Source: Fibrobacteria bacterium
GTDB lineage: Bacteria > Fibrobacterota > Fibrobacteria > UBA11236
Direction of reading: 5' to 3'
Assembly: GCA_025360005.1 (NCBI GenBank)
Contig: JANYDA010000048.1
Span: 78,048-142,047, forward strand
DNA: 64,000 nt
Below the pieces are notes generated by a model. It was not told the DNA's origin, did not search any database, and saw only the letters and a program-made list of their open reading frames with translations. The translations under genes were made by a program, and so were the position numbers. Below, one piece after another: positions 1-56,500 of this stretch; the first letter of the stretch is position 1, and each line of letters begins with the position of its first letter.

Positions 1-1857
1 CGCGCTGGCGGGATTGGTGCCGTGCGCGGAAACGGGGATGAGGCACACGTCGCGATGGCTTTCGCCGCGGCTCTTGTGGTAGGCGCGGATGACCATGAGG
101 CCGGCGTATTCGCCTTGCGATCCGGCATTGGGCTGCAGGGAAACGCCCGGCAGGCCGGTGATGGCGGCCAGATCGCGTTCCAGATCCCAGAACATGCGGC
201 GATACCCCTTGGTCTGATCCTCCGGCGCGAACGGGTGGATGTTGCCGAACTCCGGCCAGGTGAGCGGCACCATTTCCGCGGTGGCGTTCAGCTTCATGGT
301 GCAGGAACCCAGCGCTATCATGGAGGTGTTGAGGGACAGGTCCTTGTTCTCAAGCGATTTGATGTAGCGCAGCATTTCCGTTTCGCTGCGATGGCTGTTG
401 AACACGGGATGGGCCAGGATGGCGCTGTTGCGGATGAGCGGCGCGGGCCAATTGAGAGCGAGCCCGCGCGGCCATTCCTCCGCGGCTTTCGCGTCCGGCT
501 TGGGTCTGTTCACGGCTCCCGCGAAGATGGCGACGATTTCCGCCACGTCCTTCTCGGTGGTGGTTTCGTCCAGGCTGATGCCCACGTTCCCGCCCTTGGC
601 GTCTTCCAGATAGCGGAAGTTGCGGCCCGCGGCCACGGAATCCGCTTTGAGCTTGGGCAGCATGGCCGCATCCGGCAGGGAAATACGCAGCGTGTCGAAG
701 AAGGCGGCGTTGGCCTGCTTGCAGCCGAGCGTAGCCAGGCCTTTCTCCAGGGAGCGCGCCAGCGCGTGCACGCGCGAGGCGATGGCCTTGAGCCCCTGCG
801 GCCCGTGGTAGACCGCGTACATGCCGGCCATGACGGCCAACAGCACCTGCGAGGTGCAGATATTGCTGGTGGCCTTGTCCCGGCGGATATGCTGCTCGCG
901 GGTTTGCAATGCCATGCGGTAGGCGCGCTGGCCATGCGCATCGATGGTAACGCCGATGATACGTCCGGGCATGTGGCGCTTGAAGGCTTCCCTGGTGGCG
1001 AAGAAGGCGGCATGCGGCCCGCCGAAACCCATAGGCACGCCAAAGCGTTGCGCGGATCCGATGGCGATGTCCGCCCCGAAGGATCCCGGCGAAGCGAGCA
1101 GTACCAAGGCCAACAAATCCGTGGCCACGGCCACCTTGATGCCGGCGGCATGGGCCCGGGTGACCAGGTCCGCGTAGTCCGCGACGTTGCCGAAGGTGTC
1201 CGGGTATTGGATCAGGGATCCGAATGCGCCCGCCACCTGGCCGTTGGCCAAGTCCGCCTCGTCCCCGATGCGGAGTTCTATACCCAGCGGTTCCGCGCGC
1301 GTGCGCAGCACATCCAGGGTTTGCGGATGGCAGCGCTTGGAGGCGAAAAAGCCCTTGGCGGATTCATCCTCGCGGATGGAGAAGAGCATGGCCATGGCCT
1401 CGGCGGCGGCGGTGCCTTCATCGAGCAGGGATGCGTTGGCGATTTCCATGCCCGTCAAATCCATCACCGTGGTCTGGAAATTGATCAAGGCTTCCAGGCG
1501 GCCTTGCGCGATTTCCGCCTGGTACGGGGTATAGGCCGTGTACCAGCCGGGATTCTCCAGGATGTTGCGCTGGATGACGCCGGGCAGAACCACATCGTAG
1601 TAGCCGGCGCCGATGTGGGATTTGAGGACTTTATTCTGGGAGGCGAGCGCGCGCGCTTCTTGCAGGAAGCGGCTTTCGTTTTCCCAGGCCGGGAGTTCCA
1701 GCGGGGCGGCCAGGCGGATGGAGTCGGGAACGGTTTTCCGCGCCAGATCCTCCAGGCTGTCCGCGTTTACCACCTTGAGCATGTCCCGGATTTGCCCCTC
1801 GTCGGGACCGATATGCCGGGAAACGAATGCACCTTTGTTCTGAACGCTCAATTCCAT
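1..1857 (-). CDS. gcvP: Glycine dehydrogenase (decarboxylating), glycine cleavage P protein; 3' end lies outside the window
   Basis: Manual minus-strand translation from ATG 1857: MELSVQNKGAFVSRHIGP..., LENPGWYTAYTPYQAEIAQG, QRFGVPMGFGGPHAAFF, REQHIRRDKATSNIC. Confidence 0.95.
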   Translation of the reverse strand, partial: MELSVQNKGAFVSRHIGPDEGQIRDMLKVVNADSLEDLARKTVPDSIRLAAPLELPAWENESRFLQEARALASQNKVLKSHIGAGYYDVVLPGVIQRNILENPGWYTAYTPYQAEIAQGRLEALINFQTTVMDLTGMEIANASLLDEGTAAAEAMAMLFSIREDESAKGFFASKRCHPQTLDVLRTRAEPLGIELRIGDEADLANGQVAGAFGSLIQYPDTFGNVADYADLVTRAHAAGIKVAVATDLLALVLLASPGSFGADIAIGSAQRFGVPMGFGGPHAAFFATREAFKRHMPGRIIGVTIDAHGQRAYRMALQTREQHIRRDKATSNICTSQVLLAVMAGMYAVYHGPQGLKAIASRVHALARSLEKGLATLGCKQANAAFFDTLRISLPDAAMLPKLKADSVAAGRNFRYLEDAKGGNVGISLDETTTEKDVAEIVAIFAGAVNRPKPDAKAAEEWPRGLALNWPAPLIRNSAILAHPVFNSHRSETEMLRYIKSLENKDLSLNTSMIALGSCTMKLNATAEMVPLTWPEFGNIHPFAPEDQTKGYRRMFWDLERDLAAITGLPGVSLQPNAGSQGEYAGLMVIRAYHKSRGESHRDVCLIPVSAHGTNPASA

Positions 1858-2094
1858 AAGCCTCGCCCGCGTGGAAAAACCCCGACCGGATGATAGGGGA
1901 ACGGGCCCCATACGGCTGGGGGCACCAAGAACAATTTTACTAATTTTCGGCGGATACCTACAGCCATGGGGTGCATGGCTGCGGGCCGACGCCGCTAGGC
2001 GCAGCAGACGATTGCGGGAGCCGCGGAACCGATTGGGGTTTTCCGGATTCCCATGGGCAATGCCGCTTTCAAGGCACTTACAAGGGATGAGGTT

Positions 2095-3519: not shown

Positions 3520-4779
3520 ATGAAGAACCTGGTTACCCATATCGGCCCCTTGCCGGTGCAGCAGTTGGCGAAGGATTTCGGCACGCCGGCATTCATCTAT
3601 GAAAAAGCCGTGATCGAAAAACGCATCGCCGAGCTGAAGGCGTTCGAGGTGATCCGCTTCGCTCAAAAGGCTTGCTCCAATCTGGCCATCCTGGCCTTGA
3701 TGCGCAAACATGGGGTGCTGGTGGACGCGGTTTCGGCGGGGGAAATCCACCGCGCTCTCAAGGTGGGATATACGGGAGCAGGCCATCCTCCCGGCATCGT
3801 GTTCACGGCGGATCTGTTCGACGACGACGCGTTGCACTTGATCCGGGAGCATAGGATTCCCGTGAACGTGGGTTCGCCGGACATGATTTCCCAGCTCGGC
3901 AAGGTGCTGCCCGGAGCGGAAGTGACCTTGCGTATCAATCCCGGCTTCGGGCATGGGCATTCGCGCAAGGTGAATACCGGCGGCAGCTATTCCAAGCACG
4001 GCATCTGGCATACGGATCTGGAGGATTGCCTGCGTCTGGGAGTGGAGGCGGGCGTGGACATCCAGGGCCTGCACATGCATATCGGATCCGGCAGCGATTA
4101 CCAGCATCTCTCCACGGTATGCGACGCCATGGTGAAGGCGGCCAAGCGGATGGGGCCGCAACTTAAGGTGATCAGCGCCGGCGGCGGCCTGCCCATCCCT
4201 TACCGCAAGGAGCAGGCGCGCATCGACATCGCCGCCTATTACGGTTTGTGGGATAAGGCCCGCAAGGCCATCGAGAAGGACGCGGGCCATCCCGTGGGGT
4301 TGGAAGTGGAACCGGGACGTTACCTGGTGGCCGAGTCCTGTTCGCTGCTGACCCGGATCCGCTCGGTGAAAAACTCCGGCGGCAACCGCTTCTACCTGGT
4401 GGACGCGGGCTTCGATACCTTGATCCGTCCCGCCATGTACGGCGCCTATCATGAGATCTCCATCTGCGCCGCCGACGGCCGCACCGTGGGTAACGCCTTC
4501 GATACCATCGTGGCGGGGCCTTTGTGCGAATCCGGCGATGTGTTCACGCAGGAAGAAGGCGGCGTGGTCACCACCCGCAAATTGCCGGAGGCGGTGGTGG
4601 GCGATTACCTGATCCTGCATGACGCAGGGGCGTATGGAGCCTCCATGTCCTCCAATTACAATACCCGCAAGCTGGCGACGGAAGTGATGATCCAGGAGGA
4701 CGGCGCGGAGGTGATCCGGGAACGCCAGACTTTCGAGTCCATCCTCCAGTTTGAACGCGTCCCCAAAAACCTTTCCTGA
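3520..4779 (+). CDS. lysA: Diaminopimelate decarboxylase
   Basis: FAQKACSN PLP-lysine, HMHIGSG, EPGRYLVAE, GPLCESGD, GAYGASMSSNYN. Confidence 0.96.
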   Translation: MKNLVTHIGPLPVQQLAKDFGTPAFIYEKAVIEKRIAELKAFEVIRFAQKACSNLAILALMRKHGVLVDAVSAGEIHRALKVGYTGAGHPPGIVFTADLFDDDALHLIREHRIPVNVGSPDMISQLGKVLPGAEVTLRINPGFGHGHSRKVNTGGSYSKHGIWHTDLEDCLRLGVEAGVDIQGLHMHIGSGSDYQHLSTVCDAMVKAAKRMGPQLKVISAGGGLPIPYRKEQARIDIAAYYGLWDKARKAIEKDAGHPVGLEVEPGRYLVAESCSLLTRIRSVKNSGGNRFYLVDAGFDTLIRPAMYGAYHEISICAADGRTVGNAFDTIVAGPLCESGDVFTQEEGGVVTTRKLPEAVVGDYLILHDAGAYGASMSSNYNTRKLATEVMIQEDGAEVIRERQTFESILQFERVPKNLS

Positions 4780-4947
4780 CTCCCGCAGAGGTTTCCAAAT
4801 CAATGTAATGGCCGCGGTTTCCGGCACATTTTTTATGCTTGCGGGCATCCTCCCGCTCCGGCATCTCCCAGCGAAACGCGGGAAACCCAAAACCGGGCAA
4901 CTATCCCTACTTGGGACGCGGAAGATGGGGTATATTCATCTGGCTCC

Positions 4948-6774
4948 ATGAGTAAAACGATGCGCGCCTCCTTGGCACTTCTTTGTTTCCTTTGCCTATC
5001 CCGCGCCGGCATTCCCGACTCGGTCCATCCCGACTATGCGCTGGCGGAATTGCGCATGCCCGCGCTTTTCAAGACCATGGGGTTGGCTTTTCTCGACGAT
5101 GGTACCATGGTGCTGGCCGTCATCGAGTTGACCGGCGGGGGCGAAGAGCCGGAATTGGACGTGAATGAAAAGATCTATTTGATCAAAGGCGCTTCCACGG
5201 ATTCCCTTCCGGGCGAAATCAAGGAGGTTTCCAATTTCTGGCGGCAGCTTTCCGGCGTGGTGGTGGCGCAAGGCCGCCTTTACGTTTCCGATCGGGACGG
5301 CTTCTATGAAATCCCGGATCTGAAAGCCCCCCCGGATCTCCAGGCCAACCGGAAAGCCATAGTCAAATGGCCCAACGAAAACCATTGGAACTTCGGCCCT
5401 TATTGGCATCAATGGGTGTTCACCCCGCAATACCTGAACGGCTCCTTCTATGCGCCATATTCCGGATCCATCCGCACCGGCGGCTGGTCCAACGTGAACC
5501 CCACCTCTACGCTCAGCGGAGCGTTGCTGCAATGGGATTTGGCGGGGAATCTGCAAGCTTACGCCGGGGGATTGCGTTCGCCCAACGGCGCCAATCTCAA
5601 TTCCGCCACCGGGGAGATGTTCGTTACGGATAACCAGGGCAGCTGGCTGCCCGCCTCCACCTTCATGCGCATCCGCAAGGGTCGCTTCTACGGCCATCGC
5701 CAGAGCTCTCCGGATCTGGATACCGCCGGGAACGTGTTGGGCACGCATGCGCCCAACTTCGCGGAAAGCCTTCCTTACGATCCTCCCGTGGCCTGGCTGC
5801 CGTACGGCACGGTGCGATCCTCTCCCAGCCAGCCCGTGCTTCTGCATAAGGGCACTTTCGCCGGAGATTGGCTGATAGGGGACGTGAACAATCCCGGCCT
5901 TGTCCGGGTTGGGCTCGACAAGGTGGGCGAGGAATACAACGGGGCCGTGTTCCACTTCTCGCTGGGGACCGCCAATGCCGCCATCAACCGGATGGCGGAA
6001 GATCCGGAAGGCGGGATAGTGATTGGCACCATCGCCAAAATCAGCGGCAATTGGCCCGCCGGCGACAAAAGCCCGCTGTACAGATTAACGGCCAAGAGCT
6101 GGGGATCGGCCTTCGATATCAGGTCCGTGCGCGCCTTGGACGATGGCTTGGAACTGGCCTTCACCCAGCCGGTGAATCCGGATTCCATCCGCCCGGAGCA
6201 TTTCTCCGTGAAGTCTTCGCGCTATATCCGCCAGAAGGAATATGGCATGGGAAAGCAACCGGATGAGGATAGGGTGGTGCTGGAGGCGCAACCCTCTGCT
6301 GACCGCAAGCGCGTGCATCTCAAGCTCGATAGCATGCCCTTGGACAGGGTGCTGTACCTCAAGGTGGACGGGGTGACGTCATCGGGGGGCAAGGCTTTAT
6401 GGAATTCGGAAGCCTGGTTCACCCTGAACTATGCCTCCGGGCGCCGGTGGACGGCGGACGTTTCCGGCCTGGCGGGCGCAAGCGTGGATTCCAACCCGTC
6501 CAGATTGAGCGCGCGCGCGTTACCGGCGGGGTTCGGTACCCTGGAGGTTACAGTCCGGTGCGGTCTATCCCCCGGTGGCTGCGGGGATGGCGCCGGGTTC
6601 CAGGCGAAGCTGCTCGCGCCCACGGGGAAAGTGTTGGCCACGCGCTCCGGTTCAGGCGCGGAAGCGGTCCGTTTCAGCCGGCCGGGCGATGGGCCCGGTG
6701 TCTATTTGCTGCAAGTGCTTTCCCCGCGCTCCGCCCCCAGTAACCTATCGGTTACGCAGCGCGTCGTTTTCTGA
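4948..6774 (+). CDS. Secreted beta-propeller protein (glucose/sorbosone dehydrogenase-like) with Ig-like domain and T9SS-like C-terminal domain
   Basis: Signal peptide, GLRSPNG and FVTDNQGSW motifs, C-terminal GVYLLQV. Confidence 0.7.
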   Translation: MSKTMRASLALLCFLCLSRAGIPDSVHPDYALAELRMPALFKTMGLAFLDDGTMVLAVIELTGGGEEPELDVNEKIYLIKGASTDSLPGEIKEVSNFWRQLSGVVVAQGRLYVSDRDGFYEIPDLKAPPDLQANRKAIVKWPNENHWNFGPYWHQWVFTPQYLNGSFYAPYSGSIRTGGWSNVNPTSTLSGALLQWDLAGNLQAYAGGLRSPNGANLNSATGEMFVTDNQGSWLPASTFMRIRKGRFYGHRQSSPDLDTAGNVLGTHAPNFAESLPYDPPVAWLPYGTVRSSPSQPVLLHKGTFAGDWLIGDVNNPGLVRVGLDKVGEEYNGAVFHFSLGTANAAINRMAEDPEGGIVIGTIAKISGNWPAGDKSPLYRLTAKSWGSAFDIRSVRALDDGLELAFTQPVNPDSIRPEHFSVKSSRYIRQKEYGMGKQPDEDRVVLEAQPSADRKRVHLKLDSMPLDRVLYLKVDGVTSSGGKALWNSEAWFTLNYASGRRWTADVSGLAGASVDSNPSRLSARALPAGFGTLEVTVRCGLSPGGCGDGAGFQAKLLAPTGKVLATRSGSGAEAVRFSRPGDGPGVYLLQVLSPRSAPSNLSVTQRVVF

Positions 6775-7865: not shown

Positions 7866-9655
7866 TAGCCTAGGTCGTTTGCCAGGCCCTCCCGGGTCCA
7901 TGGTATGCGCAGCGCCTGCTCGATTTGGAGCCGGTTTTCCAACTTCCATCCCTGTCGCACATCGCAGCGTAGGTAATTACCGGGACTCCGCATATCTCCC
8001 ATCAAAAAAGCCGCGCTCCAGGCCATGGCGGCCATGCGCCGGCATTCAATGCTCAGAGGGGCGGGAAGCGATCCGGAATACCCTCCGCCTTTCCAGGTAA
8101 ACGCCGTTTTGACGGCCCAATCCCCCCGCCGCCAAGCTAGGCTTTGTCCCCAGCCTCCTCGTCCCTGGGTTCCCCCGCCGGATCCGTTCGAGCTGCCCGG
8201 CCCGCGCGATCCGGCCCTTAGGAAGGCCGCCGTGGCTCCCGCCTCGTGGGTCCATTCGCCCAGGATTTGGATAACCGCCAGGTTACCCTCTCCAGCCACC
8301 AGGCCCTGATCCAAGCCCCAATCCGCACCGCCGCCGCCATCGATACGGGCCCGGTAGCCTCTCCAAGCGGCCAAGGGAAATCGCGTGCGGGCCGACAGGC
8401 CGCCCTCGCCGCGCCCGGGCAGGATCCAACGTCCGTCCAGGGTATCGCGCAGGTAACCCCGGGGGGATTGCAACGGGTTGGCCCAGCCCGCGTCCGCCTG
8501 CCGCAATTGCAACCGCCAACCGGCCGAGTCCGCATCTGGGGAGGCCAGGGCCGCTTCCAGATAGCCGCCCCAATCCGGTTGATCCGTCCCGTTCCCGGCT
8601 TTTCGCCCCGGACCCGCCGATGCACCGGAGGGCGGGGGCGCATCGGTATAGGAAGCGGCCAAGCCCAGGTTCCAGCGAATGAGATTTTGCGCGCGATTGG
8701 CCAACGACGCGCCGGCGATGGAAACCTCCGTGGCCGGGCCGGCATCGGGTTCAAACCGCTGCCTTGCGGCTTGCGCCCGGAAATCCCAACCGGCCTCCAC
8801 CGCGCCCAAGCGTCCGGCGGCGCCCGCGGCGAGAAGGACGGCGTCATTGCGGGCCGGGGAAGCGATGGAAGCCGAGGAAGCCGAGATGGCGGCGCGGTGC
8901 AAACGGTTCCAAGTCGCGGCCGCCTCCAGGATCCATTTTCCCGCGCGCGCGCGCAATCCCAATCCGTCCAAGGCGGTTTCCGGGGAGCCAAGCGCGCCCT
9001 CGATGCCGGAGCTTCCGGACCAACCCGCATAAAACCGGCTGCCGACGACGAAGCCCAGGCGCGTTTCCGCTTGAGCCGCGTGCAGGTGTCCGGCAAGCAG
9101 GGAAAAGCGGGGGGCGCCCACGCGCAGGAAGCGCGTTTCCATCCGGTAATCCCGCAGGGAAAGGCGTCCCGCAAGCCCCGGAAGCGAGCCTTTCGCGCGC
9201 AGGAGGGAAGGTTGGCCTCCCGCGGCATCCGGATTTTGCCGCGGCCGGGCGGTTTGCGACAAAGCGAGAAGCGCCTTGGGTTCCCGATCCCGCAGGGATC
9301 CGTGCAGGGTATCTTCCATGTTACCCGGGGCCGTCTCGCCGCCGGCCACGGCGAGGTCCGGGCAAACCGCGGCCATCGCTTCCCCTATCTCACGCCAGCG
9401 CAGATCCCCATCCCCGGTTTCCGGGGTTTCCGCCCAGGCCTGGCAGCCGTCATCCGGCCGGTCCGCCAGGAAATCGAGGAAGGCATCGTAGGCCTCCTGC
9501 CCGGCCTGGCCTGCCGAAACCCTATCCCGCAAATGTTCCAGAGCGGACTCCGCATCCGGGGAATAGGCCGCCGTCCCCCCCGGGAGACAGGCCACGATGC
9601 TAAGGCTTAAAAGCCGGGCAATGGCGATTATTTGGGGATTATGGGAAGAATTCAA
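7838..9655 (-). CDS. Large exported Gly/Ala-rich protein, probable outer-membrane beta-barrel
   Basis: 605-aa ORF (TTG start), signal-like N-terminus, alternating beta-strand pattern at the C-terminus (YQLRLTAAL); family not recognised with certainty. Confidence 0.5.
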   Translation of the reverse strand: MNSSHNPQIIAIARLLSLSIVACLPGGTAAYSPDAESALEHLRDRVSAGQAGQEAYDAFLDFLADRPDDGCQAWAETPETGDGDLRWREIGEAMAAVCPDLAVAGGETAPGNMEDTLHGSLRDREPKALLALSQTARPRQNPDAAGGQPSLLRAKGSLPGLAGRLSLRDYRMETRFLRVGAPRFSLLAGHLHAAQAETRLGFVVGSRFYAGWSGSSGIEGALGSPETALDGLGLRARAGKWILEAAATWNRLHRAAISASSASIASPARNDAVLLAAGAAGRLGAVEAGWDFRAQAARQRFEPDAGPATEVSIAGASLANRAQNLIRWNLGLAASYTDAPPPSGASAGPGRKAGNGTDQPDWGGYLEAALASPDADSAGWRLQLRQADAGWANPLQSPRGYLRDTLDGRWILPGRGEGGLSARTRFPLAAWRGYRARIDGGGGADWGLDQGLVAGEGNLAVIQILGEWTHEAGATAAFLRAGSRGPGSSNGSGGGTQGRGGWGQSLAWRRGDWAVKTAFTWKGGGYSGSLPAPLSIECRRMAAMAWSAAFLMGDMRSPGNYLRCDVRQGWKLENRLQIEQALRIPWTREGLANDLGYQLRLTAAL

Positions 9656-9725: not shown

Positions 9726-11099
9726 ATGGTCGTCACAGCGATGTCGAAGATTTTCCACAGCCTCCGCTTCCAGCTTCCCGCCGTGGTGCTGAGCGTGTTC
9801 GTGGGCATACTTTTCCTGCTGATGTTGTTCTTCCACGAAATGACCGGCATTTTGGTCAAGACCCGCCAATTGGCGGAATCGGCGGAGATCAACGACTACG
9901 TGGCCAGTTGGCTCACGAATCTCTCTTCCAGCGCCCGCGAGCGGACCAAGCTGATGTCCCTGGGGAACGAGAGCTACCTACGTACCTTCCAGGTTACCCT
10001 GAACGAAGTCAACGATCTATACCGGGAGATCGAGCGCATCGGGCCGGATACCGCGGCCGCTTCCACCCAGCAATTGCGCGCCCTGCACGACAAGCATCTG
10101 GAGTACATGGAGCTGCTGGACGGATTCGCCAAGGACCAGACCATCCGCATGCTTTCCAGCCGCGCGCAGGCCGCGGCCCTCCCCGCGCCTCCCCCGGAAA
10201 TCCCCGCGCCCGTCCCCGTCCCCGTGCGTAAGGCCCGCGGCTTCGGCAAACGCGGGCGCATGGCCGCCAAGGCGCCTCCCGCGGGCGGAAAGGGCGCCGG
10301 ATATCACGGCCGCACCGCCGCTAAAGCCGGTCCCCGCGGGCATAAGGCGTTCCCGCGCGAAGGGAGGATCGTCCTGCGCAAGTTCGAGCCTTTGCCTTCG
10401 TCGGCGGGGGTGGAGGCAAGCAAGCAGATCGAATTGGATTCGGCCACCAACGAGACCTTCAAGGCGTATGAGCAGACCCTCCGGGAAGGGCTCTACCTTT
10501 CGCAGGAAACCATGCGGGGCGAACGCAAGGAAAAGCTGAACGGCCTGCGGAATTCCGTCGGCCGCGCCAAAGATCGCCTCATCTATTCTCTCCTGCTGCT
10601 GCTGGCCATGGTGGGCTACGTGGCCGTTATATTGAAGTGGAAAATCCTCGATCCCATGAAGAGCCTTGAGCAAGGTGCCATGGAAATAGGGAAGGGATCC
10701 CTGGGGTACCAGGTGAACGTGGCTTCCCGCAACGAAATCGGGGAGTTGGCGGACGTGTTCAACCGCATGTCCGTGCAACTGGATGAGAAGCGGAACGCGG
10801 AGATGCGGCTGCGGCGCCTGGAAGCAATCGAGCAGATTGTGCGGAGCGTGAACCATGAGATCAACAATCCGCTCATGATCATCAGCGGCAACGCGGAATA
10901 CCTGTTGGCCCTCATGGAAGGCGCGGACGAAGGGCTCAAGACCAAGTTGTACGCCATTGTGGCGGAGGTGCGCCGCATCTTCATGGTGACCCAGCGGCTC
11001 AAGGAAATCAAGGAGCCGGTGACTGAGGATTATATCGGCGCTCAGGATCAGATGATCGATTTGCTGCGCTCCAGCCAAATCCGCCCGAGGGAGTTCTGA
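9726..11099 (+). CDS. Membrane sensor with HAMP and HisKA (DHp) domains but no HATPase domain
   Basis: Two TM helices, HAMP (RNEIGELADVFNRM), H-box VNHEINNPL; protein ends about 80 aa after the His with no N/G boxes. Confidence 0.85.
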   Translation: MVVTAMSKIFHSLRFQLPAVVLSVFVGILFLLMLFFHEMTGILVKTRQLAESAEINDYVASWLTNLSSSARERTKLMSLGNESYLRTFQVTLNEVNDLYREIERIGPDTAAASTQQLRALHDKHLEYMELLDGFAKDQTIRMLSSRAQAAALPAPPPEIPAPVPVPVRKARGFGKRGRMAAKAPPAGGKGAGYHGRTAAKAGPRGHKAFPREGRIVLRKFEPLPSSAGVEASKQIELDSATNETFKAYEQTLREGLYLSQETMRGERKEKLNGLRNSVGRAKDRLIYSLLLLLAMVGYVAVILKWKILDPMKSLEQGAMEIGKGSLGYQVNVASRNEIGELADVFNRMSVQLDEKRNAEMRLRRLEAIEQIVRSVNHEINNPLMIISGNAEYLLALMEGADEGLKTKLYAIVAEVRRIFMVTQRLKEIKEPVTEDYIGAQDQMIDLLRSSQIRPREF

Positions 11100-15817: not shown

Positions 15818-17331
15818 ATGATAAGCAATACAGAACCGGCCCTGAACCTTTGGGGCCATTGCACCCAGGCTTTTCTTTCCTCCCAGGGCTGGCATCCCGG
15901 CGATGACCGTCTGCTGCTCGCCGTTTCCGGCGGCGCCGATTCCATCGCTTTGCTGCATTGGGCCCGGCGCGCGACAGCTTTGTCCGGAGGCAGCCTGGCG
16001 GTAGCCCATGTCCATCACGGACTCCGTCCCTCCGCTACCGGTGAGCAGGACTTTGTAGCCGCCTTATGCCGCGATATGGAGATCCCGTTTCTGTCCCGCT
16101 CCCTGAACCCGGCCTCCCGGCCGCCTCGCGAGTCCGTGGAGATGTGGGCGCGCCGCGAACGCTATGCTTTCTTCGCCGAGGCCGCCGCCGCAGCCGGCGC
16201 CCGCTGGATCCTGACCGGCCATCATCGCGACGACCTGGTCGAAACCGTGTTCCAGCGCTTGGGGCGGGGAACGGGCCCGCGCGGACTGAAAGGTATTCCG
16301 TTCCGGCGCGGCAACATCGTCCGGCCCTTTCTCAACCGCAGCCGCGCCCAGATCCTGGACTACCTGCGCCTGTGCGGCGCGTCCTGGCGCGAGGATGAAT
16401 CCAACGCCGATATCCGCATCGACAGGAATGGGTATCGCCACCGTTACCTGCCCGCGCTGCGGTCGGCGGAACCGGACCTGGATGCGCGCATCCTGGCCAT
16501 GGCCCTGCGCCTGCAATCGCTGGGGGACGGCATTGATCGATTGGAAGGGGAGGCCGGATGGTTGCAATACGATGGGGAGGCCAAGCCATTCCTTTCCCGC
16601 GCGCCCATCGCCGCCGCAGCGGCGGCAGACGATTGGGAATCCCTGGAGTTCTGGCTGCGGAAACTGCTGCGCGCCGCCATTCCCAACCCCGATGCCGCGG
16701 GCTCAGTATCTGCGGGTTCCATACCCATGGGACATGCCGCCGCGCCATCCCTGGCCGTTACCAAAGGGATACTTCAGGAGTTCCGCCGCCAATGGCGGAC
16801 CGACCCCGTGAGACTGAGGGTTCCGCTCTCGGCAACGGCCGCATTGAAATGCGAAAATGGGGGGGTTTATTGCGTAAACCCGGTCGAGACAACCCTCAAG
16901 GGAGTGAGGCGGGCAAAAAAAGGCTGCTCGCCGCAAGTCCAAAGGGTTATACTGAATCAAGGCTGCGGCGAGGTTTCCTGGCAATGGGGAAACCGGACCT
17001 ATACATTGGCGGCGCGGCGGTATTCCCGGCCCCGGGAACTGGAATTCCCCGAGCCATGGGCAGGAAGGGCGATCTTTGATGCGGCACTCTTTTCTTGTAC
17101 ATTGGAGATACGAACTCGCGAGGACGGCGATCGCTTTTCCCCGTTGGGACTTCAAAGCCGTTCGCGAAAATTGAAAACATTTTTCAACGAGGAGAAGGTT
17201 CCGATCGGCGTGAGGGAAATACTCCCTTTAGTCCTCGGCGGCCGGATGGTCGCCTGGGTCCCCGGTCATGGGATATCCGATTTCTTCAAGGTCAGCGGAT
17301 CGACTTCTCACATCCTTGAGTTGGTGCTTAA

Positions 17332-19517: not shown

Positions 19518-20522
19518 ATGAGTTTTCCGGACCCCGATCCCCCTCCCCCCTCTTCGACCGAACCGCAGCCGGCCCCTACAGGGGCCGGCTCGTTTTCCTT
19601 CCTGGCCCCCCCGGGGGCTTCCGTTTCCGAAGCGCCCCGCGCGGTTCCTCCCCACGGTTGGGATAAGCCCATCGCCCATGCCAAGCCGCGTCCCTGGTAC
19701 GCGGGTGACCGCGTCCTGGGCGGGGACAGGCCGCTCATCATGGGTATCCTCAACGTTACCCCGGATTCCTTCCATGACGGCGGCCGCCATGCGGGCGCGG
19801 ACCAAGCGGTGCGCCATGCCGCGGCCATGCTGGAGGCCGGCGCCGACATCATCGACATAGGCGGGGAATCCTCGCGGCCGGGCGCCGCATCCGTGCCGGA
19901 GGCCCAGGAACTGGCCCGCACGCTTCCCGCCGTGCGCGAAATTGTGAAGCGCTTCGGCTGCCCCGTCTCCATCGACACGGTCAAAGCCAACGTGGCCCGC
20001 GCCGCGCTGATGGAAGGCGCCTGCATCATCAACGATATCAGCGCCATGACGTTCGACCCGCTGATGCCGGAAGTGCCCAAGGCTTTCCGCGCGGGCGTGG
20101 TGCTGAACCATATCCGGGGCAGGCCCAGCGGCATGCAGGATGCTCCTTCCTACGGCAACGTGGTGGCGGACGTGGCGGCATTCCTGAAAGAACGCATCCA
20201 ACTCCTGGCGGCCATGGGGTTGGCCAAGGATCGTATCGCCGTGGATCCGGGCATCGGTTTCGGCAAGCGCCTGCAGGACAATTACCGCCTCATCGCGGAA
20301 TGCGAAACCTTGGATGCCTTGGGTTGCCCCATCCTGCTCGGCATGTCCCGCAAATCCTTCATCGGCAAGACGCCGGGGCTTCAGGATTCCGATCGCCTCT
20401 TTCCCAGCGTGGCCTTGGCCGTATTCGCCGCTCTCAAAGGCGTTTCCATCCTGCGTGTGCATGACGTACGGGAAACGCGCGAGGCCTTGGCCATGATCGC
20501 GGCGGTGCGCGGTCCGGGCTGA
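19518..20522 (+). CDS. folP: Dihydropteroate synthase
   Basis: MGILNVTPDSF, DIGGESSRPG, DPGIGFGK, GMSRKSF, LRVHDV; Pro-rich N-terminal extension. Confidence 0.96.
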   Translation: MSFPDPDPPPPSSTEPQPAPTGAGSFSFLAPPGASVSEAPRAVPPHGWDKPIAHAKPRPWYAGDRVLGGDRPLIMGILNVTPDSFHDGGRHAGADQAVRHAAAMLEAGADIIDIGGESSRPGAASVPEAQELARTLPAVREIVKRFGCPVSIDTVKANVARAALMEGACIINDISAMTFDPLMPEVPKAFRAGVVLNHIRGRPSGMQDAPSYGNVVADVAAFLKERIQLLAAMGLAKDRIAVDPGIGFGKRLQDNYRLIAECETLDALGCPILLGMSRKSFIGKTPGLQDSDRLFPSVALAVFAALKGVSILRVHDVRETREALAMIAAVRGPG

Positions 20523-30704: not shown

Positions 30705-31249
30705 GGGAATGCTACGCGAAAACCTTTTGCAAAGGGAAACCTCGACCCCGGGGTAAATCTAACCCCAGCCTGGAAGCATTTCAGGCCAAAAGTGGCTTCA
30801 GCCCGGTAATTGGGCGGGCATTCACGTTTATCGGCCAAAATGATGGCGCGCGAACATTAATTTCGCATTCTAACAAGTGCGTTCCCCTGGCCGTGGGCAT
30901 TGGTTGGGGAGGGTTTTCATTCCCTACCCCGCGCCGGGGATGAATTTAGGGAAGCGGGTTTTGGAAAATGTGCCCAGGGGCGGGTCGAGCGGTAGGCGAC
31001 GGCGGTAGGGAACAGGCGGCCTTGGAAGCAGATGGGGAGGGGGCGGATAGGTAACATTTGTGATACGGGGGGCGGGGATAGCCATTGGAAACGGGACCGG
31101 GGCTGTGGAGGCGGCATTCCTGCATGGAAACTGCCTCCCCGATCGCTCAGTAAGGGGGCCGTCGCGTGTTTCCGGCACGCATCGGTGCCTGCTTGCTACG
31201 GGCATCGCGTGAACGTATTTTACCCCTACCTCAAAGGAAAGGAAATAGC

Positions 31250-33007: not shown

Positions 33008-33015
33008 CCGGCCGC

Positions 33016-36254: not shown

Positions 36255-36279
36255 GGTAACCTCCGTGGTACATCCGTTT

Positions 36280-38936: not shown

Positions 38937-39023
38937 CCCCTTGGGTAACTTGCAAGGTACTGCGGGGCCGGGAAGCCGCAGGCGATACGGAGGGCCGGGG
39001 CGCCGCCATCCGCCAAATGCAGG

Positions 39024-40901
39024 TTATGGGGGGTGAACGGCATCCTCGCCGCGGGCGGCGCGGGGACCTGGGAGCGATCCGGGATCCTGGATGTTCACGT
39101 CCGCCTGCCAGGAGTTGCCGGCCGCCGGAACCGCCCCCACGCTCAGGTTCCATCGTCCCGGAAAGGCTTCTTCCAAACGGGCCCGCACATATTTGAGGCC
39201 GGTCTCGTCGGACGCGCGCTGCCAGCGCGGCTTTAGGGGAGCCTGATGGGAAAGCCGCAGGCGCAGGCCCTTGCCGGGATGGGCCGCGAGCAGGAAGCGG
39301 ATGGCCGGAGGGCCTTCCTCGGCTTCTTCCAATCCCATTTCCAACAGGGTGTGCAGAACCATGGGAGGAATGCGCTCCTCGCCGTCCACGCCTTGGGTCT
39401 CCAGCGAAAGGGCGCGGTGCCCCCGCAGTCCCATCACTTCAAGGTGGGAGCGGCACAGTTTGATCTCTTCGGCCAAGGGGATGATCCGCTCTGAGGACAG
39501 TTTGAGCACCATACGCAATTCCGAGGCCAGGGAATTGACCAGCCGGGCGGCCACTTTGGGTTCGCGCTCCAGCCAATCCGTGATCGAGCGCAGGGAGTTG
39601 AGCAGGAAGTGGGGCTGGATGTTTTTCTTGAGCAGCTCGATTTCCAGGCGCGCGCTGCGGAGATTGCTTTCTTGGAAAGCCATCCCCTGGCGGGTCAGGC
39701 GCCGCGCCAGTCCGCCGTTGAGGAATAGGATCAGGGCGGTAAGTCCCACCGCCCAGGCCCATTGCCATCGGGAAGCCTGCGTGAGGGCGACTCCGGCGAG
39801 CAGGCATAGCAGGCCCAGGCTGGCGGATCCGCTGCCCGGCTTCTTCTTCCATACGGCCCAAGCCGAAATCCCCAGCGAGAGCAAAATGGTGGCGAACCCC
39901 AGGATATCGTTGGCCCCGGACACGCCGCGGAACATCCCGGCCGGGAGCAGGTCCACGATGGCCAGTTCCAAGGGCAGCATTATCGAGGCCACGATGGTTC
40001 CCAGCAGCCAGTACCAGCGGCGCGCTGCTCTGGTGAATTCGCTCAGGAAGAACATGGGCAGGGATATCATCATGATTCCCCAGGCCAAGGTGGTGGCCGC
40101 ATCCGCCCATATGAAGGTGGGCATTTTCACGTTCAGGTAGATGGCCGCGAACATGGGTATGCTCTGGAGCGTGCAGCCCATGCAGAATAGGCTGAAGAGG
40201 CCGTAGGTGGGCTGGATCCGGTTCATGAAGTTGGCGAAATGGAAAATGCTGGTGATGAAGAAGATGCCCATCAGGAATACCAACAGGGCGATCTGCCCGT
40301 GCATGGCGTTCTGCAAGGGTTTCAGGCCGCCCAGCTTGACGTAGCCCATGCCTCCCGTGAAGGTGCGGAAGTTGGATATCCTCAGGGCCAGCATGTGTTC
40401 TCCCGGCCCGCACAGTTTCCAGGGGATGGTGATGGACTGGAACATCCGCCCCGGTTTTTCCCCGGCCGCGTCGGCGGCTACCCGTCCGTTGCTGCCCACC
40501 TGCAACCCGTCCCAGAAAACTTCCTGAGCGTCCGGGTTATGGAAGGCGTTCAGATAAAGGGGCTCCAGGGAATCGATAGGATCCTGCAAACGAATACGGG
40601 CGCGATACCAAATGATTCCCTTGGGAGGCAGCCCATCCGCTATCCAGGTCCGCAGGGCTCCGGAGTTCAGCTTCCAATCTCCGTCGGGCCAAGCGGGAGC
40701 GGCCCAGGCGGTATCGTCTCCGGTATGGTATTTCCATTTCTCCAGGAAGACAACGTCCTGGGAGCTCGCGTTCCAGGTATAAGACGCGTCGCCTTCCGCC
40801 GGGATCGCGGCGTCCCTCCCAGGTAACGCCAAAGCTACTGCGGAAAGGAGCGAACCGCACGCCAAGGCGGCCAGGATGAAGGCAGTACCCCGCGAACCCA
40901 T
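39024..40901 (-). CDS. LytS-type membrane sensor with sugar-binding-like periplasmic domain; ATP-binding boxes degenerate (probable pseudokinase)
   Basis: H-box NIQPHFLLNSL intact; N-box LEMGLEE, G1 SHQA and G2 ETGL deviate from ENGLTHG / NDG / GTGL. Confidence 0.8.
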   Translation of the reverse strand: MGSRGTAFILAALACGSLLSAVALALPGRDAAIPAEGDASYTWNASSQDVVFLEKWKYHTGDDTAWAAPAWPDGDWKLNSGALRTWIADGLPPKGIIWYRARIRLQDPIDSLEPLYLNAFHNPDAQEVFWDGLQVGSNGRVAADAAGEKPGRMFQSITIPWKLCGPGEHMLALRISNFRTFTGGMGYVKLGGLKPLQNAMHGQIALLVFLMGIFFITSIFHFANFMNRIQPTYGLFSLFCMGCTLQSIPMFAAIYLNVKMPTFIWADAATTLAWGIMMISLPMFFLSEFTRAARRWYWLLGTIVASIMLPLELAIVDLLPAGMFRGVSGANDILGFATILLSLGISAWAVWKKKPGSGSASLGLLCLLAGVALTQASRWQWAWAVGLTALILFLNGGLARRLTRQGMAFQESNLRSARLEIELLKKNIQPHFLLNSLRSITDWLEREPKVAARLVNSLASELRMVLKLSSERIIPLAEEIKLCRSHLEVMGLRGHRALSLETQGVDGEERIPPMVLHTLLEMGLEEAEEGPPAIRFLLAAHPGKGLRLRLSHQAPLKPRWQRASDETGLKYVRARLEEAFPGRWNLSVGAVPAAGNSWQADVNIQDPGSLPGPRAARGEDAVHPP

Positions 40902-41287: not shown

Positions 41288-41291
41288 GGGA

Positions 41292-41984: not shown

Positions 41985-42005
41985 GTTACCCCCGTCCCTT
42001 CGGTT

Positions 42006-43850: not shown

Positions 43851-44036
43851 ATTGTTGCAATATAGTAGCGGGGCGCGTCGGTATGCCGCAAATTGTCGCC
43901 CAAGTGCATTTCCACGGGGCGAACGGAAGCGGGGGTGGGGACGGCCCGGCTGAATGCCGGTAGGGAGGCCCCGAAAAAAAACCTGGGGTAACCTCATTGC
44001 TACCCACTAAGAAGGAGTACGGGGTTTCCTTCCCGA

Positions 44037-45857: not shown

Positions 45858-46335
45858 ATGGCCGTCCGTTTTCAATGGGAATAAATTTCTCAACAGCGCC
45901 TGCGCAAAAATAGACCTATTCCCCACGATTGCCGCCCAATACAGGGCCCTTCATGTCCACTTCCCTGTTTCCCGGTGGTTTCGTGTTTCCGCCCCTAGCC
46001 AGGGGGAGCGGAATTATCGTGCCCTGCCAATTAAAGTACCGTGGAAGGCTTCGACATTGCCCTAAATCGCATTTTCCGGGTTTTTCTTACGCCAACCAAA
46101 CGAAATGTCGGAAGGGTAGGGCTATCGAGTTCGCAAATGAGAAATACCGGAGCGGTTCCGGGCCCTCTGTGGGCCTCATGTAACTCACAAGTTACGGGAC
46201 ATTCATGCTCCATCCCCTGATCACGGTTTGGCCGGTTTCCGCATGGTGGGTTCGTAGCATAGAACGGCATGATGGGCGCGTACTTCGCGTCCTTAAAGGA
46301 CGGACATCAGACGGGTGTTAGGGGGCTGCAAGGAG

Positions 46336-46412
<77 letters not shown>

Positions 46413-49997: not shown

Positions 49998-51182
49998 TCA
50001 ACGTAGGCGCGCTTCTCCCAGCCATTTGCCTACCGCGTTGCGGACCGGGCCTTCGCCGAAGCCGGCCGGGGAGAATCCCAGGCCCCCATGCGCGAAATCC
50101 AGGGTAACATTCCCGTTACGCAGGGAGCCGCTGCGGGCCGGCGCCCGGATGCCCACGAATGTCGTCAGGGATTGCTTGAGGCCGTCATACGCGGGCTTGG
50201 GTTTGTAGTTCTCGTCGAACGGCAGGGCCGCGCCGTATCCGCCGTAGAAACCCGGGACCCAGGAATGGGCGTCCGTGAAGCCCCAGGTGAGGAAGGCTTT
50301 GCAATTGTCGTTGGCGAGGCAGACGGCCAATAGCCTGGAATAGTTGTCCTTTTGCGTTGCCAAGCCCGCGGAATCGGCCGGCAGGGGAAGGCGGAAATCA
50401 ACCTCGGTGAAGGAGACGCGCAGCCCCAGGGCTCCCAGCCGTTTGAGGTTGCGATCGATGTCCGCGGTGGAGAATAACGCTTGGGCGGCGAAATGGGATT
50501 GCAGGCCCACACCGTGGATGGGCACGCCCCTGTCCTTCATGCCTTTCACCAGATCGTAGATCTTGTCCGACTTGCCGCCCATGCCTTCGCCGGAATAATC
50601 GTTGTAGAAAAGCAAGGCCTTGGGATCCGCGCGGTGGGCCCAAGTGAAGGCGGAATCCAGGTAATCGCTCCCGATGCGTTGCTTCCAAAAGGATTCCCGC
50701 AACGCGCCCGCGCCGTCGTCGATGGCCTCGTTCACCACGTCCCACTCCAGGATTTTGCCCTGGAAATGTCCCACCACGGAATCGATATGGTTCTTAAGGA
50801 CGGCCTGCATCTCGATGCGGCTGAGGCCGGCGGCCGCATTGGCGATCCAGCCGCTTTGCTGGTGCCATACCAGATTGTGCCCGCGCAAGGAGATGCCGTT
50901 CTGGGCGGCGAAGGCCGCCAGATCATCCCCCTGCTTCCAGGTGAAACGGTTTTTGCTGGGCTCCAATTGATCGAACTTCATGGCGTTCTCCGCCACGATG
51001 AGATTGAATTCCTTTTTAAGGGTGTCCTTGTAACGGGCGTCCCCGCCCCAGAACGCATCGCCCACCGCGGCCCCTACGAATACGCCGCGTTTCTTGGCCA
51101 GGCTGCCTAAGGTTTCCTGAGCTGGGACGGCCATGGCCGTTACCGATAAAAACAGCGCTAGGGCCGCAGTATTAATCCTCAT
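49998..51182 (-). CDS. GH10 endo-1,4-beta-xylanase, secreted
   Basis: VAENAMK, RGHNLVWHQQ, WDVVNEA (acid/base), GVGLQSH, FTEVD (nucleophile). Confidence 0.94.
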   Translation of the reverse strand: MRINTAALALFLSVTAMAVPAQETLGSLAKKRGVFVGAAVGDAFWGGDARYKDTLKKEFNLIVAENAMKFDQLEPSKNRFTWKQGDDLAAFAAQNGISLRGHNLVWHQQSGWIANAAAGLSRIEMQAVLKNHIDSVVGHFQGKILEWDVVNEAIDDGAGALRESFWKQRIGSDYLDSAFTWAHRADPKALLFYNDYSGEGMGGKSDKIYDLVKGMKDRGVPIHGVGLQSHFAAQALFSTADIDRNLKRLGALGLRVSFTEVDFRLPLPADSAGLATQKDNYSRLLAVCLANDNCKAFLTWGFTDAHSWVPGFYGGYGAALPFDENYKPKPAYDGLKQSLTTFVGIRAPARSGSLRNGNVTLDFAHGGLGFSPAGFGEGPVRNAVGKWLGEARLR

Positions 51183-53567: not shown

Positions 53568-56500
53568 AGGGGGAAACCGGATTCTGGGGGTTGCGCACCT
53601 TGCCGTTCGGACCGTTCCCCAACAGGCCGTTATACAAGCCGAAGGAAACGCCGAAGCTGATGCGGGTGGCGTAGGTATCGATTTCCGTGCCTCGTCCGCC
53701 CAGCTTGATCTTCACATCGTCCAATCGCACCAGGCCGCCATGGCCGTCCGGATAGCCGGAAAGCCCCGTGGCCGCCTCGAAGTAGGCCAGGAACGGGTAG
53801 TTGTTGTAAATGCGCGCGTTGAGCTTGAGTCCCCATCCTATGCTCTGGAACCAGCCGTCCGCATGGCCGGCGGGCTTCCAATAGTCCCCGTCCAAAAGAC
53901 GCGAGTCGAAGGCGGAGCCGTTCCACGCGCGTCCGCTTTCCCAGAACACGTTGAGGTAGAGATCCTCCAGGAAGAGAATCCAATAGCCTTTGTAGATGTC
54001 CGGGATGATGGGCTGGTTCAGGTCCGCGCTGAACTTCAGCGTATTGCGGCCCTGGAAAGCCAGGTTCTCGATGTCCCGCAGGAAGGGGTAACCGCGGAGG
54101 TACATGCCCTTGGCGAAGAAGCTGTCCAGCGTGTCCGCGCCGGCCTCCGGTTTGTCGACATGCCAGTCGAGGACGCTGCCCGCGAAGCCGGAAAGGAGCA
54201 GGGCGCCGTTGTCCGACCAGGGCAGGCCGATTCCGTAGCTGGCGCCCAAGTCCAGGTCATGCAGGGTATAGTCGCGGAAGAGCGTGCGCACCTCGCCCGA
54301 TGACGTCACCTCGAAGGTTTCCGCGAAGGAGCCTTTGCGTACGATGCCGGAGCGATCATAGGTATAGGCCGCCACCGCCGCCAGGCCCGTGGGGGCTATC
54401 TCTTCCTTGTCGTTGTAGGATGAGCTGTACAGGTTGACCACCGTGGACAGGTAGAGGTTCTTGTAATACTGGAAAGCGAACGGGAATTCATAGAAGTTGA
54501 AATCGTTCCAGGAATAGCCGCCCGCGACGCGCAGATAGGATGTCTTGGTGTCGTTCTCCACCGCGCCCGCGTCGAAGAGGTTGTAGGAGGCGGCCGCTTC
54601 CACGTTGCGGAAGATGACGGCGTAGTTCTGTTCCTCCACGCTTATTTCCGGCGCGCCCGGCTTGTCCCGCACCGTGACCGTATCGTGCGTGGTCAGATTC
54701 CCGCGCGAGAAGGATAGCTCCAGGGAGACGGGGAGCGCATGGTTGGCCCATCCCAGGTAGAATTGGGATTCCTTGTCGGCGGAGAGGATCTCGTCGTTGG
54801 CGCCGAAATAGTCCAGCCCCTTGCCCATTTCCAGGAGTAACGCGCCGGATACCTCGTTCTGGGTGACGGGGTCGTTGATGACCCCGTTGAAGCCGGCCAG
54901 CCATTTGGCCTCGCCGTAGCGGGCCGACCGCGTGGTCGCCGACATCTCTTCGCCGATGAGCAGCGGGTTCAGGATATAACGCGTGGGCACGCCCAGGTAT
55001 TTCTCGCTCTTGCCCTCGAAGTCGATGGGCTCCACCTTTTCATTTTCAGGATGCAGGGTGCGCAGGGCCGTGGGCGGGGCCGCCACCGGTTTGATGTCCG
55101 CCAGGAGGTAAAGCGAGAAGCCGTCCTTATCGTAGTTGACGTAGGCCAGGCGCTTGCCGCCGGGATCGACCGCTGGGGCGAAGGCGCCGCCGGGGACCTG
55201 GGTGATGGCTTCCACCGGGCCTGCCGCGCCGTTCTCGAAGGGACAGCGGTAGATGTTGTAGATGGCGTTGCTGTCCGCGGAGAAGAAAAAAGATTTCCCG
55301 TCCGGACTCCATTCGGGATCGCGCTCGTCGTAGGGGCGATCCAGCACGGGATGGAAACCGGTGCCGTCGGCGTTGATGATGGCGATGTTGCGGGAGGCGC
55401 CGTCGAAGTAAGAGAAAAGAATGGCCTTGCCGTCCGGGGAGAAGCGGGGCGAATAGATGTTGAAGCCGAAATGCCCTTGCATGGCGCTGTCCGCGGGGAA
55501 AATGGTCTTCACTTCCTCCGGATCCAATTCGGTCCGGCCCGTTTTGGGATCGGCGTGATCCGGTATGGGAGCCACGCACAGATAGAAGTTGGTCAGCTGG
55601 TTGCGCACGAAAACCACGCGCTTGCCCTGCTTATCGTAGCTGGCCTGCACGGCGTTCAGGGACTTGGTGAAGCGCTTCTCGGTCTTGTCCGGCCCGAAGG
55701 CGAAAAAGGGAGTCTTGCGCAGGGGATTGCGTTGGAAGACGTCCAGCTTATGGATGCCGTTGCTGTCCTCTTCGCGCGCGGAGTGGTAGAGGATGGTGCT
55801 GTCGTCCGGCGCCACGTCGAAGGGGCTGCGGATGGGCGCGATCAGCTTCAGGCGATCGTCCTCCTTCTTGGCGGTGTCCGCGAGCTTATAGCGGTACAGG
55901 GAACCTTTGAAATCGTCGCGGCCGCGGTTGGAGATGAGGAAGATGTTCTCGCCTTTGGAATCCCAGCGCGGATAATAGTTGTAGAATCCCTTTTCCGTCA
56001 GCTTCCGCCCTTGCCGCAAAGGCCCCAGCGCCTTCACCTGATCCGCGTATTGGGCCGTGATGGAATTCTTCCAATCCGTCCATACCTGTTGCGCATCCTT
56101 GCCCAGGACGTGCTCCATCGATCCGGACAGCGTCTGCCGGTGGATCCTGGCGTTCTCGGCCCACAGCTTGATGACGGCGTTGTCCCCGTAACGGGCGGCG
56201 ATGTATTTGACGAAGGCGAACCCTTGCGTGTAGGGTCCCAATTCGTATTGCAGGCTGGTGCCCGCGAAGGTGCCCATGCGATCGTAGCTGAGCAGCTTGT
56301 CGTTTAGGCAGGCGGTGCGCAAGAGCATGTCGCGGTGGGAGTCCCAGGCATCGTAGCCGGAGTATTCCGATTCGTACTGCGCCACGCCTTCCGCGAACCA
56401 GTTGGGCTGGCTGGTGAAAGGGACAATGGTGGCGGCGGAGGATTGCACCGCCTCGTTGTAGAAATCCTGGTATCCCAGCACCAGGCCTTGGATAGGGCTG

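Follow-up and report, generated by a model that had tools for sequence, protein, structure and literature searches.

A two-part DNA word, GTAAC-N6-GNTAC, is present at 20 exact sites in a 64-kb stretch of DNA from an uncultured Fibrobacteria bacterium (assembly GCA_025360005.1, contig JANYDA010000048.1, positions 78,048 to 142,047; "the window" below means this whole stretch of 64,000 nucleotides). This amounts to about one copy per 3 kb, or 3.1 copies per 10 kb, a density kept up by a force on the DNA itself that overrides codon preference. We are confident that the word is a lineage-specific signal at the DNA level that has a dedicated reader. As to its function, the explanation that we prefer, at a probability of roughly 0.35, is a self-recognition tag comparable to the DNA uptake sequences (DUS) of Neisseriaceae and the uptake signal sequences (USS) of Pasteurellaceae. 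The analysis covers 64 kb of the window genome and about 10–22 kb for each relative's locus.

A pattern search returned all 20 sites reported in the initial annotation, with exact coordinates and strands, including three perfect palindromes GTAAC-N6-GTTAC at 6740, 46180 and 50104. The spacing of the two arms is strict: counted strand-wise, a spacer of six gave 23 matches in the window, and each other spacer from 0 to 20 gave none or one. Dinucleotide-preserving shuffles contained on average 0.04 copies (at most 2), first-order Markov simulations predicted 0.03, and synonymous-codon shuffling within genes, the strictest control, yielded 0.30 coding copies (at most 4 in 500 shuffles) against 15 observed. 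The enrichment is therefore about 50-fold relative to the codon-aware null and more than 500-fold relative to the dinucleotide nulls. The earlier expectation of about 0.3 copies per window from independent base frequencies was correct as arithmetic, but ignored the depletion of TA. Thus neither a synonymous-codon shuffle nor other spacer lengths, the two checks that had been suggested on the window itself, reproduced the count, and the observation proved to be real and stronger than first stated. Its details were largely borne out as well. At least one GTAAC half is found in each of the 20 GTANC-N6-GNTAC sites, none having been claimed to lack it; the partner half-site is present for 14 of the 26 plus-strand GTAAC pentamers, where about half had been estimated; and a G precedes 16 of the 23 oriented half-sites (16 of 20 had been given). 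One-mismatch variants, among them those already listed at 4308, 8271, 24482, 46834 and 52730, are modestly enriched, with 16 oriented matches against 3.0 expected.

The gene content of the window is that of an ordinary chromosome, with gcvP, asd, lysA, proB, proA, hisI, tilS, ftsH, folP, cysS and clpP, a TonB/ExbBD–receptor–LytTR sensor cluster, a GH10 xylanase gene and a tRNA-Arg gene. The DNA is present in two short-read sequencing runs, in both as assembled contigs, and exact-protein look-ups found no record for most of the window proteins; two short Logan contigs, L001 (15 kb) and L193 (5 kb), add no sequence beyond the window. Genes were mapped with a self-trained codon model, cross-checked against public gene calls (15 kb) and Pfam, and their starts are approximate. 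After inspection of four doubtful gene starts, 15 of the 20 copies were assigned to coding sequence and 5 to intergenic regions. The coding copies are distributed over 12 unrelated genes, in both coding orientations and in three frames, and are spread evenly along these genes (relative positions 0.02–0.98). All 20 copies are given below; the "main frame" is xGT ANC nnn nnn GNT ACx, codons are those of the coding strand, and L numbers denote loci of relatives.

947..962, plus strand: copy in gcvP (gene on the minus strand); coding strand CGT ATC ATC GGC GTT ACC (RIIGVT), main frame.
4490..4505, plus strand: copy in lysA; GGT AAC GCC TTC GAT ACC (GNAFDT), main frame.
6536..6551, minus strand: copy in the gene of a 608-aa protein whose function is unknown; GGT ACC CTG GAG GTT ACA, main frame.
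6740..6755, no strand: perfect palindrome GTAAC-N6-GTTAC in the final 35 nt of the 608-aa gene; the orthologous site in L005 also has a copy.
9309..9324, minus strand: copy in a minus-strand gene that encodes a 585-aa protein whose function is unknown; GGT AAC ATG GAA GAT ACC, main frame.
9982..9997, minus strand: copy in a HAMP/HisKA sensor gene; CGT ACC TTC CAG GTT ACC; retained in L005 and L022 and disrupted by wobble changes in L003 and L004.
16432..16447, minus strand: copy in tilS in another frame; G TAT CGC CAC CGT TAC (YRHRY); kept in L007, L009 and L022.
19744..19759, minus strand: copy in folP at the conserved GILNVT; GGT ATC CTC AAC GTT ACC; kept in L006, L007, L008, L012 and L021.
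24780..24795, plus strand: copy in the gene of a 1198-aa surface protein with immunoglobulin-like and beta-helix regions; GGT AAC CCG GGC GGT ACT; orthologues have other amino acids here.
31051..31066, plus strand: intergenic copy about 185 bp upstream of an NmrA-like gene.
33347..33362, minus strand: copy in tonB; GGT AAC ACG CTG GCT ACC, main frame.
36256..36271, plus strand: intergenic copy in the short gap between the stop of a TonB-dependent receptor gene and the start of a DUF4249 lipoprotein gene; overlaps a GGAGG ribosome-binding site.
37874..37889, plus strand: copy in a TonB-dependent receptor gene; GGT ACC GCG CGC GTT ACC, main frame.
38945..38960, plus strand: intergenic copy between a His_kinase gene stop (39024) and a receptor gene start.
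40823..40838, plus strand: copy in the signal-peptide codons of a 7TMR-DISM histidine kinase gene; GTA GCT TTG GCG TTA CCT, the frame that needs rare GTA and TTA.
43988..44003, plus strand: intergenic copy 34 nt past the stop of a GSDH gene; terminator-like hairpin on the strand of the gene.
46180..46195, no strand: intergenic perfect palindrome between the tRNA-Arg gene (46336–46412, minus strand) and the GSDH gene start.
50104..50119, no strand: perfect palindrome in the GH10 xylanase gene; CGT AAC GGG AAT GTT ACC, main frame.
54088..54103, plus strand: copy in a 1198-aa peptidase/PD40 gene, Tyr-Tyr frame; G TAC CTC CGC GGT TAC.
54837..54852, plus strand: second copy in the 1198-aa peptidase/PD40 gene, rare-codon frame; GTA TCC GGC GCG TTA CTC.

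The main frame accommodates 12 of the 15 coding copies, and places three of the nine fixed bases at wobble positions. The codons that the word requires are rare in the window genome: GGT accounts for 8% of Gly codons, GTT for 12% of Val, CGT for 8% of Arg and GCT for 7% of Ala. The word is thus written into genes against their own codon preferences. It also comes close to saturation, since it is present at 15 of the 22 coding positions with compatible amino acids (68%), and at 12 of the 15 that belong to the main frame; most of the empty positions belong to the frame in which GTA and TTA, both very rare codons, would be required. Moreover, main-frame-compatible peptides number 15, against 4.6 after shuffling of the amino-acid order within genes (3.3-fold), so that the proteins themselves have been bent toward the word: the force on the DNA shifts amino-acid sequence too. 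The encoded peptides have nothing in common beyond the residues that the word dictates, which rules out a protein motif. A codon artefact is ruled out by the synonymous shuffle, and codon-pair bias by the exact coupling over 6 nt, by the intergenic copies and by the absence of the word in relatives that encode the same peptides.

The anatomy of the word points to a symmetric reader. Relaxing each fixed base in turn showed that within the window the fourth base of one arm is the only free one. A pooled logo of 60 oriented sites from 13 genomes reads rG-GTAAC-nTnnAn-GNTAC-c, with T29/C16/G13/A2 at spacer position 2 and A33/G17/C7/T3 at its mirror position 5; coding constraints cannot account for this symmetric T/A preference. 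The flanking G and C were not counted as recognised bases, because Gly (GGT) and Thr (ACC) codons largely supply them. Sites with two GTAAC arms number 8 and sites with one number 44, which fits a rule that one full GTAAC arm is enough and that the base of the other arm is free. The arms are inverted 5-bp sequences whose centres are 11 bp apart, and therefore lie on one face of the helix, and the two-fold symmetry extends to 16–18 bp. From these features we infer that the reader is a two-fold symmetric protein on duplex DNA, either a homodimer or a pseudo-dimer; a symmetric dimer with an affinity threshold would be the simplest form, and a pseudo-dimer such as a Type I specificity subunit is possible.

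Several known sequence classes resemble the word superficially and could be rejected on its anatomy. Sigma-54 or ECF promoters have the wrong spacing and the word is palindromic; the NtcA/CRP box has GTA-N8-TAC, compared to GTA-N10-TAC here; and the second arm is GNTAC, as opposed to the GTnAC site of EbfC/YbaB. An RNA hairpin is contradicted by the presence of both orientations relative to genes and by a stem of only 5 bp. Repeat elements of the REP, REPIN or MITE kind would have related flanks, but those of the 20 window copies are unrelated, and 75% of the copies are coding. Polar words of the Chi or KOPS type do not match a near-palindrome, and the orientation of the strict arm tracks the coding strand (9 versus 4), as codon constraints predict.

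The inverted 5-N6-5 geometry also recalls the core sites of tyrosine recombinases, or insertion targets of mobile elements, in which inverted arms surround a 6-bp crossover region, as in dif, lox and the inverton repeats of Bacteroides. A related sequence, GTTAC-N7-GTAAC, in fact flanks invertible promoters in Bacteroides, a member of a related phylum of the FCB group (PMC4611039); it has the same pentamers, inverted around a short spacer. However, the order of its arms is the opposite and its spacer is 7, and it occurs as pairs that flank promoters beside a recombinase gene. The window has no paired sites bracketing a segment and no recombinase gene or domain, and its 20 spacers are all different. 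A thousand recombination sites inside genes would moreover be harmful, and the enrichment would be left without an explanation. We therefore consider this origin very unlikely.

Comparison of orthologous positions in relatives separates the effect of the word from that of the encoded protein. For all regions that could be aligned to window proteins, the positions compatible with the main frame were filled in 16 of 32 cases in relatives that carry the word, and in 0 of 18 in relatives that do not (one-sided hypergeometric P ~1e-4), with the proviso that the two classes rest on small counts at some loci. The clearest example is the conserved peptide GILNVT of dihydropteroate synthase (DHPS, encoded by folP), which is written GGT ATC CTC AAC GTT ACC in seven carriers of 41–62% GC, and with GGC and GTG or GTC codons in word-less relatives. 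The copies in tilS and in the sensor-kinase gene behave in the same way with respect to carriers and non-carriers. The folP and tilS copies are kept across genomes of 41–62% GC, a conservation in which re-creation by drive and retention are not separable in these data. Many other copies are lineage-specific, some of them within intergenic insertions, so that copies turn over.

The word was scanned for in 80 FtsH-anchored loci. Among GTDB species representatives, the closest FtsH loci all belong to metagenome-assembled genomes (MAGs) of uncultured Fibrobacteria, and carriers were only found among close relatives (FtsH at least 76% identical), with a GC content of 41–66%. Within these 80 loci the word was absent from Fibrobacter, Chitinispirillaceae, Ignavibacteria and the remaining outgroups. 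Besides the window genome, 12 relatives have the word, with the following counts at ten of the loci.

L007: 10 copies in 22 kb.
L004: 4 copies in 22 kb.
L012: 4 copies in 22 kb (41% GC).
L005: 3 copies in 13 kb.
L009: 3 copies in 12 kb, one of which uses the stop codon TAA.
L003, L008, L015, L021 and L022: 2 copies each in 12–22 kb; L015, a carrier of low density, belongs to the complete chromosome OY970309.1.

In total, the loci of the clade have 36 copies in 358 kb, and 135 outgroup loci have 5 copies in 2.03 Mb. A second region of 10 kb from the L007 genome contains two further copies, so that the recurrence in related genomes that the initial annotation had proposed as a check was found both in relatives and at a second place in one of them; the word is probably genome-wide. 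Relatives from Joint Genome Institute metagenomes, retrieved via CysS, include four close ones with 0–2 copies each, and the other 76 loci served as negative controls. In the FtsH tree the carriers comprise the seven-row clade of the window, the L007 clade and the deeper L012, and the word is essentially missing from L011/L013 and from an eight-row sister clade; L002 and L010 have no copies in 10–12 kb each, a length too short for a call. The window genome, L003–L009, L012, L021 and L022 are classed as motif-positive, and L011, L013, L016–L020 and L023 as motif-negative. As the carriers are patchy on this tree, the trait has been lost or gained more than once: within one family-level clade of uncultured Fibrobacteria, the force acts on certain genomes and spares the rest.

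Some further observations were made on these loci. L011, L026 and L027 are titled "uncultured Bifidobacteriales" or "Bifidobacterium", but their FtsH proteins fall firmly inside Fibrobacteria, and the labels look wrong. At 13711–13746 of L007 (identical to 3120–3155 of L274), the copies GGGTAACGTGTATGATAC and GGGTAACGTATACGATAC lie 20 bp apart at the folP stop codon, and look like a tandem duplication of one site. L274, from the relative with the densest word, also contains a short fragment of a Y1_Tnp (IS200/RAYT-type) gene (4847–5498) and a holin of the gene-transfer-agent (GTA) type beside a GH108 lysin (11975–12786), possibly remains of a phage or a gene-transfer agent. A scan of viral contigs for the full 14-base consensus gave 111 single matches and no general enrichment. 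The multi-copy viral loci L087 and L125 (three copies each) were rejected, as their copies are due to a repeated tail-fibre N-terminal peptide, VTGNLHVT. Paralogous tail-fibre-like genes at L087 2735–6590 and in L125 have the common N-terminal peptide MSDPLLFVDTSESNVTVTGNLHVT, which spells GGTAACCTCCAYGTTAC three times: a protein-level source of the word, separate from the present finding.

The patchiness among close relatives resembles that of methylase genes, and raises the possibility that an orphan methyltransferase of bipartite (Type I-like) specificity targets the word, the density being raised by a housekeeping use of methylated sites such as strand discrimination or replication control, or by motif-directed repair bias. 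Its format would be suitable: a strict arm, a second arm with one free base and a fixed 6-bp spacer make up the bipartite asymmetric form that is usual for Type I specificity (REBASE-type motifs). On the other hand, targets of restriction enzymes and methylases are normally avoided or neutral, not enriched at least 50-fold, and it would take a coincidence for two target-recognition domains, independent of each other, to read arms that are near mirror images. Repair bias runs in the wrong direction as well. Very-short-patch (VSP)-type repair of deaminated 5-methylcytosine converts T:G to C:G, and cannot create the T's at wobble positions 2 and 14; for the word to arise in the main frame, two of the three wobble positions must change from C or G to T (GGC to GGT; GTG or GTC to GTT), which makes such an origin unlikely. 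We consider a methylase target rather improbable overall. Of the kinds of signal put forward in the initial annotation, the chromosome-scale class as such has thus held, and a methylase target driven up by biased repair has lost ground.

Intergenic DNA has about three times the density of coding DNA, with 5 copies in 6.7 kb compared to 15 in about 57 kb. The five intergenic copies are confined to a single TonB/receptor/LytTR cluster of 15 kb (post hoc P ~0.001). This cluster (31051–46195) consists of co-directional genes for TonB/ExbBD, a TonB-dependent receptor, two 7TMR-DISM kinase/LytTR units and GSDH; the intergenic copies occupy nearly every gap of more than 30 bp, and none is present in the 14 gaps of the housekeeping array at 2–26 kb. 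A gene for a ThsB-type TIR protein is present at 32348–33007, with no ThsA gene nearby in the window. Downstream of the GSDH gene, on the minus strand at 43975–44010, a 7-bp hairpin GGGUAGC-AAUGAG-GUUACCC is followed by CAGG and U8, 34 nt after the stop codon, and the copy at 43988 is likely to be an intrinsic terminator built from the word. The longest stretches without the word are 26795–30704, which holds a three-gene ThuA/outer-membrane-protein cassette, and 54853–64000, which holds the core genes cysS and clpP; the cysS regions of relatives (L194–L197) are also poor in copies.

A concentration of intergenic copies in one sensor/receptor locus could be expected if the word were the operator of an ordinary transcription factor with a large regulon, for which RhpR, GlnR/AfsQ1 and TyrR would be models. 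The operator of RhpR in Pseudomonas syringae, GTATC-N6-GATAC, belongs to exactly this word class (GTANC-N6-GNTAC) and demonstrates that a dimeric regulator can read such a geometry (PMC4191427). However, the RhpR regulon comprises about 167 peaks in chromatin immunoprecipitation (ChIP), many of them mismatched, and has no saturation of coding positions, and the word described here requires GTAAC in one arm. A regulon would hardly place 75% of its sites in coding sequence, evenly along genes, nor fill 68% of the positions that proteins allow and bend peptide composition. In addition, the intergenic copies of relatives adjoin unrelated housekeeping genes, and for this reason the clustering in the window is treated as unexplained and not as evidence for a regulon. 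We give hardly any credence to the operator explanation; a regulon, a codon artefact, a repeat element and a protein motif can all be regarded as excluded. The original preference for a chromosome-scale signal over an ordinary regulon is therefore supported, by the 15 of 20 coding copies in 12 unrelated genes, the 15 of 22 compatible positions filled, the use of rare codons and an excess that is shared, as a lineage trait, by relatives of 41–66% GC.

The evolutionary pattern of the word can be described by six features. The word is very strongly enriched, fills nearly all tolerated positions, favours one reading frame and comes with an excess of the peptides that it encodes; it is denser between genes, where one copy resembles a terminator, and it is restricted to one clade, with gain and loss. 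Because this pattern comes closest to that of DNA uptake sequences, a self-recognition tag of the DUS/USS type is our preferred explanation, drawn by analogy. Many DUS and USS copies form terminator-like hairpins. DUS and USS likewise occur every 1–3 kb, on both strands and mostly in genes, have a higher intergenic density, and are limited to one family-level clade with gain and loss. They also show a strong reading-frame bias and an excess of encoded peptides, uptake sequences roughly doubling the tripeptides that they encode (PMC2817400); here 12 of 15 coding copies are in one frame, and compatible peptides stand at 15 against 4.6. Under such a model, word-bearing DNA would be preferred by a receptor when it is taken up or otherwise passed between cells, recombination would then spread the word-carrying alleles, and molecular drive would fill nearly every position that the proteins tolerate.

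Several points weigh against an uptake tag. Known uptake sequences are contiguous, non-palindromic 9–12-mers from Proteobacteria that are naturally competent and whose uptake machinery is known at least in part, whereas the word described here is bipartite (5-N6-5), near-palindromic, and comes from uncultured Fibrobacteria. To our knowledge, no bipartite palindromic uptake sequence has been described, nor has natural transformation been reported for Fibrobacterota, and neither competence machinery nor a sequence-specific receptor was found among the genes of the 64-kb window. Dyad scans per locus and over pooled loci revealed no "dialects", i.e. variant words, in sister lineages: of the candidates, GTAGG-N7-CCTAC is the T-arm of an orthologous tRNA, ATTTC-N3-GAAAT results from the conserved FtsH peptide DFVEM, and TGGC-N7-GCCA stems from the coding of Ala-rich coiled coils. 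The clustering of all intergenic copies in one locus could hint at an added local role. Finally, the 20 copies are spaced more evenly than random (coefficient of variation 0.62, P = 0.016), which fits a structural role at least as well as an uptake tag.

This even spacing leads to the main rival of the uptake tag, namely that the copies are binding sites of an abundant dimeric protein with a chromosome-organising, nucleoid-associated or self-marking function, kept by selection on site density; as a variant, such a self-mark might protect a cell's DNA against nuclease attack, in the manner of Chi. The palindromic logo of 16–20 bp is typical of a dimeric reader of duplex DNA, and some copies have persisted between deeply diverged genomes that differ greatly in GC content. 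The sites of Noc, SlmA and MatP number tens per genome, compared to an estimated thousand or more here, and no candidate protein can be named. Moreover, several close relatives lack the trait or have lost it, which would be odd for a core chromosome function. Such a protein is a serious candidate, albeit a somewhat unlikely one when taken by itself.

A precedent on which the chromosome-protein explanation can draw, and for which it has been proposed, is HIP1 (GCGATCGC), which together with related cyanobacterial palindromes is a palindromic word in genes, over-represented 15- to 300-fold, conserved between genomes, linked to chromosome structure, and of a function still unsettled after long study (PMC5861425). 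By the measure of a palindromic word at least 15-fold over a codon-aware null, the present word, with one free base, reaches about 50-fold (15 versus 0.30). HIP1 differs in being a contiguous 8-mer, denser (up to more than one copy per gene) and from another phylum; it overlaps known methylase targets, and it has neither the 6-bp spacer nor the relaxed arm that are both features of the word described here.

In full-text string searches, no paper was found that contains the motif string in any spelling, in agreement with the earlier statement that no such motif has been described for this lineage, and nothing was found in the literature that links Fibrobacter methylomes to the word. We know of only a handful of genome-wide signature words (DUS, USS, HIP1, Chi and KOPS), each of which has given insight into DNA uptake, repair or the organisation of chromosomes. 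What is new in the present word is its two-part near-palindromic form, its occurrence in a phylum without a described counterpart, and its unusual saturation of allowed positions. The carriers and non-carriers that encode the same peptides at orthologous sites constitute a natural experiment, and a comparison of their gene content should therefore point to the reader protein, for which the word also provides a ready-made bait in pull-down or DNA affinity purification sequencing (DAP-seq) experiments. In these MAGs it can serve as a marker for binning and for spotting recently acquired DNA, and it may open a way to genetic tools for a phylum that is hard to handle. We tentatively suggest that it could be the first self-recognition signal for uptake or transfer outside Proteobacteria, and the first that is bipartite and palindromic. 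If so, a clade of Fibrobacteria from soil, sediment and glacier streams would exchange DNA with a preference for its own kind, exerted through a dimeric receptor that recognises GTAAC-nTnnAn-GNTAC specifically.

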